DNA of 64,000 nucleotides, taken from an uncultured Alphaproteobacteria bacterium. GTDB lineage: Bacteria > Pseudomonadota > Alphaproteobacteria > RF32 > CAG-239. This document shows positions 20,641 to 26,637 of the stretch, piece by piece; position 1 is the first letter of the stretch, and every line of letters begins with the position of its first letter. The DNA is taken from positions 28,093 to 92,092 of the forward strand of contig CAKQLF010000001.1 of NCBI GenBank assembly GCA_934254585.1. The letters are read 5' to 3'. A program made the translations under genes and the position numbers. The notes under the pieces are model-generated. The model had not been told where the DNA came from. It saw only the letters and a list, made by a program, of their open reading frames with translations, and ran no database searches.

Positions 20641-20937
20641 GTTGGTATAACTGACTCTCGTAAAGTCTGGTAATTTTTTACCATCTTGTTTTGATGCAAA
20701 AGTTTGTTTTTCATATATCCATTGTCCTAATGTACCTCCAGATGGAGGAGTATTATTCTTTGCCCATTCTTCAAGTTTTTCTCTATTAAAATGGAGATAA
20801 CATCAACAACGGAAAAATACCAGGTATCTTTCTCTTCACCTATAGAGCGTATTTTTTTCTATTCAAAAAGTTTAATATCGTTTTGCATAAATTAAAGCTC
20901 CAACGTTGAAATTTCTATTTACCGTTCTGTTGGGCTT

Positions 20938-21306
20938 TTACATCGTGCCGTCGGATTGGATAATATCATAATCAACGACTTTGCCAGATTTATCAAATCC
21001 TATAAACAGATTTGTTTCCTCAAAAGTATAATTATCTTGGAACCATGACATAACCCAGCCAATGAGCGGTATCAACCAATGGTATCTTCCGGCACCATAT
21101 ATTTTTCGATATTCATAATATTCCAAATTGTTTTTCTGAAACACAAGATTCGGCGTTCCGAATTTTTCTCTTGCGTCTGTTTTAGAAGAAACGCCGACCA
21201 TTTGGTTTTCTATACTGATGCGGCTGTCTGCCAATTTTTCATTTCCGATAGTGGTGCTGCAAGATGTCAGAACAATCATCGCAATTACTAATAAGACTTT
21301 TTTCAT
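20938..21306 (-). CDS. lipoprotein
   Basis: Start reassigned to ATG 21306 (SD aggaga upstream). Signal peptide plus lipobox MKKVLLVIAMIVLTSCS. Confidence 0.6.
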   Translation of the reverse strand: MKKVLLVIAMIVLTSCSTTIGNEKLADSRISIENQMVGVSSKTDAREKFGTPNLVFQKNNLEYYEYRKIYGAGRYHWLIPLIGWVMSWFQDNYTFEETNLFIGFDKSGKVVDYDIIQSDGTM

Positions 21307-21316
21307 CTGCGCTCTC

Positions 21317-21946
21317 CTATTGAACTTTTGCCAATCTGACAACAAAATTTTGGCCGAATTCTTTTTGCCAATCCATTTTCTGCTTATCTGAAATTTCATC
21401 AGATTTGTCCGTTATGCTGAAAGAATTCGCCTTAACATGTCCGTCTGCTGAAACCTCATTATCCGTTTTTGTCAATGCAAAATGTCCGATATAGGTCACT
21501 TCCTGCGGGCGCACCGTAAATCTGATTTTGCTGTTGCCCTCATAATGTTCATCTGTTTCTACCACCGTGCGGACGACTTGGGTATTGCCATACTGTTCAG
21601 TCGTTGTATAGATATATTGCAAATAAAGGTTGGTTACCTCGTATGCCCCTATCGGCAGCATCGCCTTATCATATTTGTTGCCGTCCAAGATGGTACTCAT
21701 ATAAAAAACTTCATTTGTTTTTATATTTTTGAAAGCGACAATATCGTTATAATTGGCGCCAAAGAACCCATCATCGGACACATTGTCCGATAAAGAGGTA
21801 ATAACCACTCCGCGGGCACCGCTGTTAAACAATGCGGGACGAAACTGACGGCTGGCGCGCAACAGGTCGCTCTCATTCGGCGTTTGCGGAAACGCGCATC
21901 CCACCACAGTCAAGCAAACACTTAGAATTAAAAACAATTTCCGCAT
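21317..21946 (-). CDS. lipoprotein / secreted protein
   Basis: MRKLFLILSVCLTVVGCA lipobox. 209 aa. Confidence 0.6.
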   Translation of the reverse strand: MRKLFLILSVCLTVVGCAFPQTPNESDLLRASRQFRPALFNSGARGVVITSLSDNVSDDGFFGANYNDIVAFKNIKTNEVFYMSTILDGNKYDKAMLPIGAYEVTNLYLQYIYTTTEQYGNTQVVRTVVETDEHYEGNSKIRFTVRPQEVTYIGHFALTKTDNEVSADGHVKANSFSITDKSDEISDKQKMDWQKEFGQNFVVRLAKVQ

Positions 21947-22517
21947 TGCATACTCCTTATTAAATCAGCCGCTTAATTTTGAGTTCAGACTAAATGAAAT
22001 TGAGTAAAAAGTAAAGAAATAACTTCACAATAACCACAATGGAAATAAGATATTTTATAATATTGTTTCGGCGAAACATTGATATTCTCTACCTTAAAGC
22101 CTTTATCCGCAAGAATGTTAAAGATAAGCCCGTAACTTTGAAAGACTTTCCATAAGAAGTTCAATTTTATTTGCTAATTCCTTAAAATCTTCATACCCAT
22201 TAGTCCGATAATTGCACAGTATCGCGCACCATTTTAATAAAGGCACTCGAGAGAGTGTCTTTTTTGTCATTTGTAGAGTTCAATTTTACTTGTGATGTCC
22301 AACTTGTTTTTTAAGACCATTCTTAATCCTCTTGTCCGGTGTTTTAAGTATATTGAAATTAATATAATATGCAATTACTAAAAATTATATAACATAATAA
22401 AATTGCTAACAATTTTACAAAATTTATCGAACTTCGGCTTATCTTTTTTTATAAAATTATTGCTTTTCAATATAAAAGTATGTTACACTTTTCGCAACAG
22501 TTTTAAGGATTGGAATA

Positions 22518-23531
22518 ATGCTCAATTTTTTTCACATATCTCGTGATGCGTCAGAAGAAAAGCTTGAAAGCTTTAAAAAGGGTATTGAAGCTAATCTGGG
22601 CACAGGGTATGGCGGACAACAATCTGGATTTTATTGTTGGACAAACGAAGAAAAAGCCAATGAGTGTTATGCAATGTGGGCAACAGGGTCACAAGCTGCA
22701 TGGGCAAAAGAAAAATTTGGAGAAGATATAACTTTAAAAAATGGAAATGCCTTAAAATTAAAAATACAAGTTGATGAAAACTCCATTAAATATCCTAACT
22801 ATCAATTGGATAATGAACAACATCCAGATAAAAACAGCGGACGAGAAAAATCTATATGGCTTGATTTTTGGGAAGCTCAGAAAGATTTATTTAATAAAGA
22901 AAATCAAGTGCAAATTGAAGGTGTTCTTTATAATATGTGTTTTGATGAACAAAATCATTGTCCAACACTTATTTCAAATGATAAAGATAAAAAAGTAATA
23001 AAAATTAATTCAACACTTGCTGAAGAATCTTTTAGAACTCAGGCAATTAATAATTATCTTGCCGATAAATATCCATCATATCGTGATAATTATAATAAAT
23101 TGCTTATGGCCGTGGCCCTAAATGAGCCAAAAGTACAAATCGGTGATAGAATTTTACACCCACAAAATATTGCCTTAAAATATTGTGGAAGTAAAATGTT
23201 GACGGATATGGAAATCAGTAAAATGCATTCAAATTTCGGTACTGATGAAAAGATAGCTGATTTTAAAAATGCTCGTTATGGTGGATATGATGTTAAATTT
23301 AATGAAAAGGTATTATTTTCTTCCCAACAACAAGATATTAATATGAATAAACTTAATGTTTTAAGAAAGAGATTAGCTCAAAATTCAGAGCCTACATCAA
23401 ATTCAATAACTTCTAAGAAAGTAAGAAGTACAGATGACAAAAAAGTATCTGAACCAGTAAAAAAAACAGTTTTAGATATGCATACAATTCAAAAAAACAT
23501 AACAAAAGATATAATCAACGGAGGTTATTAA
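22518..23531 (+). CDS. hypothetical protein (no signal peptide, unknown family)
   Basis: 337 aa with SD aagga upstream. It follows about 570 bp of AT-rich non-coding DNA and is translationally coupled to the next ORF. Confidence 0.6.
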   Translation: MLNFFHISRDASEEKLESFKKGIEANLGTGYGGQQSGFYCWTNEEKANECYAMWATGSQAAWAKEKFGEDITLKNGNALKLKIQVDENSIKYPNYQLDNEQHPDKNSGREKSIWLDFWEAQKDLFNKENQVQIEGVLYNMCFDEQNHCPTLISNDKDKKVIKINSTLAEESFRTQAINNYLADKYPSYRDNYNKLLMAVALNEPKVQIGDRILHPQNIALKYCGSKMLTDMEISKMHSNFGTDEKIADFKNARYGGYDVKFNEKVLFSSQQQDINMNKLNVLRKRLAQNSEPTSNSITSKKVRSTDDKKVSEPVKKTVLDMHTIQKNITKDIINGGY

Positions 23532-25312: not shown

Positions 25313-25343
25313 ATCCCCCTAATGAAATTAGAGGGATTTTTTT
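25313..25343. terminator. bidirectional rho-independent terminator
   Basis: atccccctaat-gaa-attagagggat flanked by A and T runs, between convergent genes. Confidence 0.7.
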
Positions 25344-25353
25344 ATCTTCGCCT

Positions 25354-26097
25354 TTACTTATTATCAGCTTCATTCAAATCTGGTATTTCCGGCATTTCAT
25401 TAAAATTGCGAATATATTCTTCTTTGGTTAAACAATTTTCTTTAGCCTTATTTTCATCTTTATAAAGCTCTCGCCAATCATTTTTTGAAAGTTCAATATC
25501 TGAATTTTCACCATCTGCCGTATTTTTAGCAAAAATAACCATATATTCGGCATATTCATCAGCTGTGACACACCCATCCTTATCTTTATCCATCTGAAAA
25601 TAATTTTCATCAGCAAGGTTATTTGACACACTTTTAATAAAATTATCAGCCATTTCATCAGAAGAAGTATTATTCAATTTCTCTAAGGCATCTTTCATAC
25701 CATCCATTTGTTTTTGAATTTCTGCCATATTTTCTTTCGGTGATTTTGACATTATATTTCTTATTTTCTCTTGACGTTCCACAACTCTAGCGTCAATTTG
25801 TTTTTGTAAAAAAACTTTATATTCATCTTTATCTAACTTTTTGTCGCTGTTTTTATCGACTTGATTAAAATGCTCCTGCATTTTCGTTTTTTTAGCTGCT
25901 TTCTCAGCTTCCGACAAACCATATTCATAGTCTACGCCGCGCTGCATCATTAAAAACTCGTTTTCGGAAACAAAACCATCGCTATTCACATCTGACAAAC
26001 CGAAAATATCAGAAAATTCTTCAATTTCTTGAGCCGACACCAAAGAAAAAGTCACACAACTGGCAAATAAACTAAAAAAATACAGTTTTTTATTCAT
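25354..26097 (-). CDS. secreted EF-hand calcium-binding protein
   Basis: Signal peptide MNKKLYFFSLFASCVTFSLVSA. At least three EF-hand-like loops (DVNSDGFVSENEF, DKNSDKKLDKDEY, DKDKDGCVTADEY). Confidence 0.6.
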   Translation of the reverse strand: MNKKLYFFSLFASCVTFSLVSAQEIEEFSDIFGLSDVNSDGFVSENEFLMMQRGVDYEYGLSEAEKAAKKTKMQEHFNQVDKNSDKKLDKDEYKVFLQKQIDARVVERQEKIRNIMSKSPKENMAEIQKQMDGMKDALEKLNNTSSDEMADNFIKSVSNNLADENYFQMDKDKDGCVTADEYAEYMVIFAKNTADGENSDIELSKNDWRELYKDENKAKENCLTKEEYIRNFNEMPEIPDLNEADNK

Positions 26098-26106
26098 AAA
26101 AATCTC

Positions 26107-26493
26107 CTAGTAGCCCTTAAAACTGCTGTATAAGTAATAGCCCAGTCCGAATATCAGGCAAAACAACAAAAAATAAAAAGATAAATATATAATTCCGGCA
26201 GCCACAAGCAGTGATAAAATAAATAAACCGATTTGCATAAGCCAATTTAAGCTTGTTTGAGCTGAAGGAAGAGAAAGCGGCTTTTCAAAATCATCGTGTC
26301 CGTTAACTCCGTGTCCGCATTTCAAGCAATGTGTGGCATTAACCGGTAAATTTGCTCCGCATTTATCACAAACCAAATATAAACCTTCGCCGTTATCCTC
26401 AAGTTTATGAAAACAATGCGGACAAAAACGCCACTTACCAAAGTTTACGGACGTTACATCTTTTTGACAATTAAAACAGTAGACCTTTTTCAT
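26107..26493 (-). CDS. double zinc-ribbon protein with C-terminal TM anchor
   Basis: CFNC...CPHC and CDKC...CLKC pairs, then a hydrophobic stretch IGLFILSLLVAAGIIYLSFYFLLF. Confidence 0.55.
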   Translation of the reverse strand: MKKVYCFNCQKDVTSVNFGKWRFCPHCFHKLEDNGEGLYLVCDKCGANLPVNATHCLKCGHGVNGHDDFEKPLSLPSAQTSLNWLMQIGLFILSLLVAAGIIYLSFYFLLFCLIFGLGYYLYSSFKGY

Positions 26494-26637
26494 TTTATTT
26501 CCTATTTAGAGAACATCTTTTTATAATTTAGGTATTCTACCGCCAAAAGGCAAGTAAACAGACAAGTTATAAACACACTAATGCAAATTAATTGATTTTT
26601 AAATCTTGTCGTTTAAACTTATTTTAACTAAACGACT

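Follow-up and report, generated by a model that had tools for sequence, protein, structure and literature searches.

A tRNA-Thr-linked composite repeat and a predicted ADP-ribosyltransferase-fold protein in an uncultured alphaproteobacterium: a probable island of small gene cassettes

The stretch of DNA analyzed here, to which we refer as the window, comprises 64 kb of low-GC (36.9%) sequence from an uncultured alphaproteobacterium, and all coordinates refer to the whole of it. Our subject is the region that follows a tRNA-Thr(GGT) gene (20532..20606, + strand; found by ARAGORN, Rfam tRNA 70.3 bits), where the order is tRNA-Thr, a 1.5-kb islet carrying two lipoprotein candidates, a non-coding repeat element, the leader of a 337-aa protein, that protein itself (P1) and a 472-aa protein (P2), P1 and P2 being the upstream and downstream members of a translationally coupled pair. 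An original prediction had described these features and had read them as a horizontally acquired or lineage-specific host-interaction module, in which the pair could be effector-chaperone, toxin-immunity or enzymatic; the features themselves were all found, at or near where it had placed them. The explanation that we favor, with some reservation, is that the tRNA-Thr(GGT) gene anchors an additive island of small cassettes, in which the repeat serves as the recombination site, P1 is cargo with an ADP-ribosyltransferase (ART) fold, and P2 is a gene that borders the island. Comparisons were made with fetched contig loci (designated by L and a number), and the homologues of the window's proteins all derive from rumen or gut metagenome-assembled genomes (MAGs) labelled Alphaproteobacteria.

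The repeat was discovered by comparing the flanks of P1 genes, which have a common non-coding element both upstream and downstream of P1 that also recurs between other genes. It is approximately 170-185 nt in length and composite in its architecture. The att-like copy in the window lies at 22162..22345 (+), with a blastn and nhmmer match across 22176-22283 (E 6e-17), and was aligned with 14 copies from 5 other genomes. Four parts can be distinguished within it: a conserved left arm (22162-22199), an imperfect copy of the tRNA-Thr 3' end (TTAGTCCGATAATTGCACAGTATCGCGCACCATTT, 22200-22234), a terminator-like hairpin (22239-22262), and two inverted boxes (22275-22287 and 22331-22345), which are decayed in this copy. 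The sequence that is imitated is the 3' end of tRNA-Thr (AGTCCGATTCTTGCTAATGGCACCATTT, 20582-20609), directly 3' of which stands a terminator-like hairpin with a T-run (20613..20638, +) that is equivalent, by alignment, to the hairpin module of the repeat. The repeat model run in nhmmer also matches the end of the tRNA and its terminator (20581-20675, E 1.5e-9), and this match and the 22162-22345 copy are exactly the two significant matches that the window contains. Among the copies the tRNA-mimic module is either near-exact (AGTCCGATTCTTACTAGCGGCACCATTT, identical at 27/27 nt to a relative's tRNA in L134) or a variant (AGTCCGATAATTGC-N5-TATCGCGCACCATTT), and the hairpin module is a GC hairpin followed by a T-run, variable in sequence with its stem kept. 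The inverted boxes read AGTCCGAT ... ATCGGACT and are about 52 bp apart, and promoter-like hexamers occur 3' of the second box. Furthermore, the boxes are conserved in sequence without covariation (RNAalifold pairs only the 8 bp of the boxes, with no compensatory change and an unpaired interior of ~50 nt), which suggests that they form a protein-binding site.

In total, 39 significant copies of the element were recovered from 13 sources by blastn and nhmmer, every one of them in the same orientation. In the window, L046, L134 and L136 the copies are grouped 2-6 kb or less beyond the 3' end of tRNA-Thr(GGT), and in L018 beyond that of tRNA-Leu(TAA); the rest of those loci is free of them, and some ~79 control loci (about 1 Mb) returned a single match, which is a genuine tRNA-Thr. 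The repeat was not present in PLSDB plasmids, nor in IMG/VR viral contigs when these were searched with an exact degenerate pattern, and we found no description of it, of the P1 family or of the P2 family in the literature.

Where relatives carry several copies, these set single genes apart, P1 among them, in arrays whose first gene directly follows tRNA-Thr(GGT) or tRNA-Leu(TAA). The order in L134 is tRNA-Thr, a 306-aa and a 139-aa gene, repeat, methyltransferase, repeat, a 200-aa gene, repeat, P1, repeat, GNAT, repeat, and then ordinary genes; in L137 it is repeat, a 272-aa gene, repeat, a 200-aa gene and Fic, repeat, P1, repeat, with a VirD4-type gene adjoining. Exact or near-exact copies of the tRNA end lie within the L134 arrays, and the cargo pool of the arrays as a whole includes ART, Fic, GNAT and methyltransferase genes and a GIY-YIG nuclease. 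Cassettes turn over among relatives: L134 and L136 have the folD-tRNA-Thr flank in common, but each has its own set of genes ahead of P1, and in L019 the tRNA-Thr and its terminator are followed after 123 nt by P2, a gene order that marks this locus as an empty, unoccupied site. Variable content that includes such a site (L134 as compared with L136, L046 and L019), a position on the 3' side of a tRNA, and bounding direct repeats (in the window, 20582-20609 and 22200-22234 enclose the lipoprotein islet) are the properties of an additive island. They likewise bear out the earlier expectation that gene content at this position would not be identical in all relatives.

The same arrangement could also be produced were the repeat a lineage-specific intergenic module, either a terminator combined with an operator or promoter or an element resembling a miniature inverted-repeat transposable element, with the arrays built up through tandem duplication and gene turnover near tRNAs. 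The terminator-like hairpin held by each copy and the hexamers beyond the second box are in keeping with such a module, the inverted boxes could be the operator of a common regulator, and no recombinase was found in the window or in the array loci. We nevertheless consider this explanation quite unlikely. It is at odds with a 5' module that copies the 3' end of a tRNA, and with the occurrence of the copies only directly 3' of tRNA genes and in a single orientation. The genes that the repeats flank are mutually unrelated, and therefore the arrays are not duplications. Adjacent cassettes have, moreover, diverged discordantly, in that identity between L134 and L137 is 81% for the 200-aa cassette protein and just 41% for the P1 protein next to it. 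Last, the repeats on either side of P1 in L134 have an identical 35-nt left arm, and the downstream one is a left(c)+right(b) hybrid, as a site-specific crossover would produce.

From these observations we infer that recombination takes place at the repeat itself. The repeat would be the site of a site-specific recombinase encoded elsewhere, which would add cassettes to the tRNA and remove them again, much as integrons do or other integrative elements that target tRNA genes; P1 would be accessory cargo alongside the Fic, GNAT and methyltransferase genes, and P2 a chromosomal gene bordering the insertion site. Several points weigh against this explanation. The window's own copy of the repeat is decayed in its box half, and the lipoprotein islet lies on the strand opposite to that of the other cassettes. 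The arrays are known from about 6 genomes only, all of them represented by metagenomic or MAG contigs, and the visible span of each array locus is only 10-20 kb. No integrase or recombinase domain occurs among the called genes of the 64-kb window and the array loci (L018, L046 and L134-L143; 10-20 kb each), nor was an integrase detected among the unannotated open reading frames (ORFs) of the window, the ORFs of the array loci, or the extended L137/L143 contig. In the metagenomic contigs, neither a circular intermediate or excised form nor a strain-level presence/absence polymorphism was observed. With regard to the proteins, the Pfam DUF218 model (PF02698) picks up none of the P2 family, 61 members giving no match at E <= 1. 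A more elaborate proposal is that gut and rumen Alphaproteobacteria run an integron-like capture system of their own, in which single-gene cassettes would each have a ~170-nt site with AGTCCGAT recombinase boxes and a likeness to the 3' end of tRNA-Thr or tRNA-Leu, an unlinked recombinase would stack them at the tRNA, and P1 would circulate as a new ART effector cassette; this we put forward as a tentative possibility, clearly less probable than the island itself. Gut and rumen Alphaproteobacteria are not known to carry integrons.

At the 3' end of the cassette region, P1 and P2 adjoin each other. The tight coupling reported for the pair, with a Shine-Dalgarno sequence inside the upstream gene, is real: the TAA stop of P1 directly abuts the ATG of P2, and GGAGG lies 8 nt upstream, inside P1, such that the junction (GGAGGTTATTAA followed by ATG; 23520..23534, +) places the P2 ribosome-binding site within the last P1 codons. 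The same junction is present on 7 independent contigs of the same species and is therefore no assembly artefact. A dedicated two-protein module, whether toxin-immunity, effector-chaperone or a two-subunit enzyme, with the coupling ensuring stoichiometric co-expression, would account for the zero-nucleotide gap, for the Shine-Dalgarno sequence within P1 and for the stability of the arrangement across those 7 contigs. ART toxins such as DarTG, ParST and Tre/Tri usually have adjacent immunity genes, and this too would favor a partner. The phyletic pattern, however, largely refutes such a module. No P1 homologue lies within 8 kb of P2 in any of 43 species (0/43), and P2 is found in none of the 10 other P1 contexts (0/10); the adjacency that would be expected of a toxin-antitoxin, toxin-immunity or effector-chaperone pair is thus not conserved, and the check proposed earlier, whether the two always co-occur, has a negative outcome. 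P1 has unrelated neighbors elsewhere, and the closest P2 orthologues (81% identity) have a different protein, of 300 aa, upstream. A 405/426-aa protein that comes after P1 in two distant contexts (L048, L141) was tried as a cryptic relative of P2 and rejected, hhalign against the P2 profile giving a probability of 0.45%. Together with the secondary appearance of the junction itself, these results make a dedicated pair very improbable indeed.

That the junction looks secondary is apparent from both of its sides. Other P1 genes all end in ...QN(Q/E)G followed by the stop codon, and the downstream repeat, where present (L046, L134, L137), comes about 35-40 nt past the stop, whereas the C-terminus of P1 in the window (…KDIINGGY) is unlike that of all relatives and reads through the GGAGG into the abutting TAA and ATG. 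Other P2 genes all have an AAGGAG-type leader of their own. It is reasonable to postulate that a deletion, possibly at an AAGGA microhomology, took out the promoter of P2 along with the repeat at the far end of the P1 cassette; with these lost, the P1 frame would run into the P2 ribosome-binding site and the apparent coupling would thereby be created, P2 presumably being transcribed now from the promoter of the P1 cassette. On this reading the fusion would be accidental rather than functional, P1 being cargo and P2 part of the conserved flank. The earlier reading of this DNA as horizontally acquired or lineage-specific accordingly holds in part: it stands for the DNA between tRNA-Thr and P2, which is bounded by the tRNA 3' end and its imperfect direct copy, varies in gene content among relatives and contains the gene lowest in GC content at third codon positions (GC3), but it does not stand for P2, which is conserved across the clade. 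Indeed, the codon-usage comparison that had been proposed as a check places P1 lowest in GC3 among 55 window ORFs (0.18), with P2 at 0.24 and the gene of the 209-aa lipoprotein highest (0.476), a composition in agreement with a distinction between cargo and conserved flank. The likelihood of codon usage is inflated by low GC3 and gave no information.

P1 (22518..23531, +) travels with its leader. The leader/promoter region (22410..22517, +) forms an unbroken alignment with P1 loci in L134, L136 and L046, and by blastn window positions 22410-23510 match L134 5893-6984 at 77.6% and 22443-23497 match L136 at 78.2%. The protein has an N-terminal ART-fold domain (~1-125), a beta-rich domain (~130-290) to which no relative was identified, and a disordered K/Q/N-rich tail (291-337). 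When all members of both alignments were scanned, neither P1 nor P2 gave a match in Pfam, NCBIfam or PADLOC, nor did PDB profile searches; in PADLOC no known defence model covered P1, P2 or the neighboring small proteins, and Foldseek of the P1 model against the PDB returned no significant match. The statement that the pair has no recognizable motif and no known family is thus correct for sequence profiles and goes too far for folds, which are assignable: an ART fold for P1 and a YdcF/DUF218 fold for P2.

For P1 the predicted structure (predicted local distance difference test, pLDDT, 84) has the split beta-sheet of the ART/NAD+-binding fold over its N-terminal ~120 residues. In an alignment of 29 sequences reaching down to 31% identity, H6-x-S8-R9 in the first strand, G37-F38-Y39 in the second strand, and Q96-x-D98-N99-E100-Q101-H102 after strand 95-97 are invariant, so that H6 (beta1), Y39 (beta2) and E100 occur in the order expected for a catalytic triad. 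Members of the H-Y-E class carry the motifs SYHGT, GFYS and E148 (diphtheria toxin) or HGSR, GIYFA and NE (PARP1). An hhalign comparison of P1 with the diphtheria toxin catalytic domain (a sequence identical to 1dtp_A) was not significant (E 0.25); in its sole alignment H6 pairs with H21 and GFY39 with GFY54, the H-to-Y spacing being 33 residues in both proteins. The order and style of the motifs, which are those of the H-Y-E class, and the fold lead us to call P1 a remote ART-fold protein and a probable NAD+-dependent ADP-ribosyltransferase of the H-Y-E (diphtheria-toxin/PARP-like) type. Its family, which comprises 41 clusters at 90% identity among 5.8 billion proteins even when a profile served as the query, is a sequence-orphan, previously unclassified ART-fold family. 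One could alternatively suppose that P1 has an ART fold and does not ADP-ribosylate proteins or nucleic acids, acting instead as an NADase, a Tpt1-type phosphotransferase, an Arr-like modifier of small molecules, or an inactive binding module. The strict invariance of HxSR, GFY and DNEQH argues for an active NAD+ site, and the H-to-Y spacing equals that of diphtheria toxin; we therefore regard this alternative as doubtful, if deserving of consideration.

P1 homologues elsewhere have unrelated neighbors (YgjV, GNAT, an LRR-like 405-aa protein, an 89-aa ORF). Some homologues are found beside a Fic-domain gene and a VirD4/TraG-type coupling protein (L137/L143 2165-7820), and those at L142 7675-9342 and L139 8161-9054 have a 555-aa ankyrin-repeat protein and a zeta-toxin gene in their vicinity. 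Such company is typical of effector or conflict loci and is offered as leads only. Most C-termini in the P1 family consist of a variable disordered linker followed by a loose polar motif, ...L..[ILM].QN..Q.., and the 200-aa cassette protein ends similarly (...YKQRNN...QN.L); in this small sample, the common motif could be a signal for export or partner binding. P1 itself has no visible signal peptide and would be cytoplasmic (here as below, signal peptides and lipoboxes were judged by eye from the sequence alone), and it has no conserved immunity partner. P1 travels with Fic, GNAT and nuclease-like genes and, to the extent that neighbors are a guide, could be an effector that is exported or equally an enzyme for conflict or defence inside the cell. 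That it is secreted, for instance by a type IV system, so as to ADP-ribosylate a target in a protist, a host or a competitor, would explain the missing immunity gene, given that the protein would then act outside its producer, and the Fic and VirD4/TraG-type neighbors, the ankyrin-repeat protein and the retained polar tail are consistent with this. Yet there is no secretion system within the window, the VirD4 association concerns one species only, and positively charged C-termini are common in this AT-rich genome, the net charge of the last 20 residues of P1 being 0. On balance we consider secretion unlikely.

P2 (23532..24950, +) is a different kind of gene, the conserved flank of the insertion site. 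Its predicted structure (pLDDT 92.5) has a YdcF/DUF218-like Rossmann-type core at ~115-345 with helical N- and C-terminal extensions, and according to this model P2 is a divergent cytoplasmic YdcF-like protein with a nucleotide-binding fold. An exhaustive profile search recovered its relatives as 38 representative clusters among 1.84 billion, confined to gut and rumen Alphaproteobacteria, the most distant of which (P0191; E 1.3e-4 to the P2 profile) scores 23.8 bits against Pfam DUF218 (4.5e-5; cut-off 27.6). The characterized DUF218 proteins ElyC and SanA function in peptidoglycan and lipid-carrier homeostasis (PMC3879167, PMC12176290). In the 43 species representatives P2 is found in varied contexts, including rplM-rpsI, lexA and, in its closest relatives, the 300-aa protein, which is helical. 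An SGNH/GDSL hydrolase lies immediately 3' of P2 in 7 loci (e.g. L006 9397-10008), its start at or overlapping the P2 stop codon, and appears from this position to be a better candidate than P1 for a functional partner; in L023, L024 and L031 a PRK07208-type FAD oxidoreductase lies directly 3'. These pairings point to a possible role for P2 in envelope or sugar-precursor chemistry. In longer P2 orthologues of 534-559 aa (L014, L015, L016, L022, L030), tblastn finds two tandem matches to the first ~100 residues of P2, and the N-terminal helical domain thus appears to be duplicated in them.

Between tRNA-Thr and the repeat, the two minus-strand lipoproteins of the original prediction are present as ORFs with lipobox-like N-termini. 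The 209-aa candidate (MRKLFLILSVCLTVVGC; 21317..21946, -) has an identical copy in the same-species contig L044. The smaller one (20938..21399, -) resembles a lipoprotein family weakly at its N-terminus (NCBIfam E 0.0056) and has no homologue in any fetched locus; it likely starts at the internal Met at 21306 (MKKVLLVIAMIVLTSC), which gives 122 aa and does away with the overlap with its neighbor. The long AT-rich spacer upstream of P1 was also borne out, at 571 bp (21947-22517) and 28% GC as against 36.9% for the window, and is the third-longest intergenic gap there. Small minus-strand ORFs within it (21985-22270) have no family match, and their peptide conservation overlaps the left arm of the repeat with no consistent start or stop; they were therefore treated as non-coding. 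Short minus-strand frames without a family match occur both there and at 20640-20937 (e.g. ...EWAKNNTPPSGGTLGQWIYEKQTFASKQDGKKLPDFT, reading towards the tRNA), and may be remnants of decayed cassette genes.

The 5' side of tRNA-Thr bears a mark of its own, 36 nt that repeat the 5' half of the tRNA exactly (20337-20372), a copy that stops one base past the anticodon and is followed by a 159-nt insert adjoining the 5' side of the tRNA (20337..20531, +, in all). The insert is GC-rich and structured, and is ~78% conserved in 3 genomes (the window, L134 at ~1697-1891, and L046 at ~6622-6819); it is not present in L136, L019 or L054. Its consensus fold reaches -48.8 kcal/mol with 6 compensatory pairs, from only 3 sequences, its 3' end is the reverse complement of tRNA positions 38-48, and it has no Rfam match. 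The whole would be a second mark of recombination at tRNA-Thr, and it may be an att scar or a small RNA. On the 3' side, a further downstream repeat of the tRNA 3' part, as in a classical island, was not found out to 37.2 kb. Upstream of the tRNA is the gene of a 703-aa membrane-anchored coiled-coil protein (18046-20157, -) with sub-threshold similarity to ZorA (NCBIfam 8.6e-9, 34 bits vs a cut-off of 190; PADLOC ZorA1 4e-7); it adjoins dus-trkA and tRNA-Thr in four distant relatives as well, and a conserved role in the envelope is more likely for it than one in defence.

Downstream of P2 lie the small membrane protein, the EF-hand protein and the double zinc-ribbon protein that had been assigned to one module with P1 and P2. 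All three are there: a 61-aa ORF with two transmembrane segments (25118..25303, +), which is lineage-specific and found on same-species contigs only; a secreted 247-aa EF-hand protein (25354..26097, -; Pfam EF-hand_7 1.2e-11, EF-hand_1 4.1e-11) with a signal-peptide-like N-terminus; and a 128-aa double zinc-ribbon protein (26107..26493, -; Pfam DZR 1.4e-7) with one or more hydrophobic C-terminal membrane segments. Membership in such a module is not supported, in that these genes have no homologues near P2 in the 43 species and no flanking repeat. They are followed by a FAD-dependent oxidoreductase of the PRK07208 type (26638..28203, +; NCBIfam 2.3e-218), the gene that directly follows P2 in three other species, and thus the intervening 24951-26637 (30% GC) looks like a second, separate lineage-specific insertion.

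With respect to the wider setting, GC skew is negative over 1-20 kb of the window, about 0 at 20-37 kb, and strongly positive from 37 kb, and a probable oriC candidate lies at 36700-37136, in the intergenic region between rho and coaE-dnaQ. This segment holds the window's only two perfect DnaA boxes together with three 1-mismatch boxes, is 20% GC, and contains many TTAA-N7-TTAA-like repeats; parB-parA-rsmG-mnmG-mnmE occupy 4.4-11 kb. The AT-rich spacer, which was also considered as a replication origin, was rejected, as it has a single 1-mismatch DnaA box compared to the cluster at 36.7-37.1 kb. The island is situated 10-16 kb from the putative oriC, inside the skew-neutral block, and plus-strand genes there are head-on to replication. 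In the same block, a 1637-aa autotransporter-like surface protein (29046-33959, +) has precomputed Pfam BigA beta-barrel and passenger domains on an identical same-species copy. Two paralogous proteins of ~207 aa (34653-35282, + and 58491-59111, +) have an identical prepilin-like N-terminus (MIEMLGVLAIIAVLSVGGIAGYSKAME) and cysteine-containing C-termini, and look like type IV pilins or pseudopilins.

Should recombination indeed occur at the repeat, it would define a compact, recognizable cassette-exchange system in abundant uncultured gut and rumen bacteria, and the repeat model would offer a sequence handle for harvesting the mobile gene pool of this group from metagenomes. The enzyme types in the cassette pool (ART, Fic, GNAT, GIY-YIG nuclease) are typical of inter-cellular conflict, and P1 adds an orphan branch to the ADP-ribosyltransferase superfamily together with a clear hypothesis as to its catalytic motif. 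The case also cautions that a cassette landing beside a core gene can give perfect translational coupling, and that coupling alone is no evidence of a functional pair.

Integron arrays without an adjacent integrase exist, such as the clusters of attC sites lacking integron-integrases (CALINs). The arrays described here resemble these, and integrons in general, in that co-oriented single-gene cassettes are bounded by a recombination-site-like repeat, there being no integrase next to the array, and in a cargo consisting mainly of orphans, acetyltransferases and toxin-like enzymes. They differ from integrons in that no IntI was found, in that the array is anchored by the 3' end of a tRNA and there is no attI, and in that the cassettes here seem to carry their own promoters; unlike attC, the repeat has 8-bp boxes about 52 bp apart, no covarying stem, and a composite tRNA-like architecture. 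A comparison may also be drawn with the additive flexible genomic islands at tRNA genes in Alteromonas (PMC4898812) and the tRNA-seeded islands of Prochlorococcus, in which tycheposons leave partial-tRNA repeats (bioRxiv 10.1101/2020.12.28.424599). As in those islands, there is a hot spot 3' of a tRNA with a partial-tRNA direct repeat after each inserted block, cassettes vary in number and identity among relatives, and near-identical cassettes occur in divergent backgrounds. In contrast to them, most units here consist of one gene and measure 0.5-1 kb, and the repeat is a conserved composite of ~170-185 nt as compared with a tRNA fragment of ~40 nt. The arrays examined, moreover, neither contain nor adjoin an integrase or a hallmark gene of tycheposons.

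The two proteins can be set against known families in the same way. P2 departs from E. coli YdcF and the DUF218 proteins ElyC and SanA in its helical extensions of ~110 residues at the N-terminus and ~125 residues at the C-terminus, and the Pfam model does not recognize it. P1 is like known ARTs in the fold of its N-terminal ~120 residues and in the expected order of an aromatic-H-x-S/T motif, G-F-Y and N-E; unlike them, it has no significant sequence similarity to any ART in Pfam or the PDB, and it carries an extra beta-rich domain of ~160 residues and a disordered tail. It has, furthermore, no receptor-binding or translocation domain, signal peptide or immunity partner. What is novel relative to these systems is, ultimately, a family of ART-fold proteins that is an orphan in sequence, and a variant of the tRNA-anchored cassette island that is unusual in its single-gene units and composite repeat.

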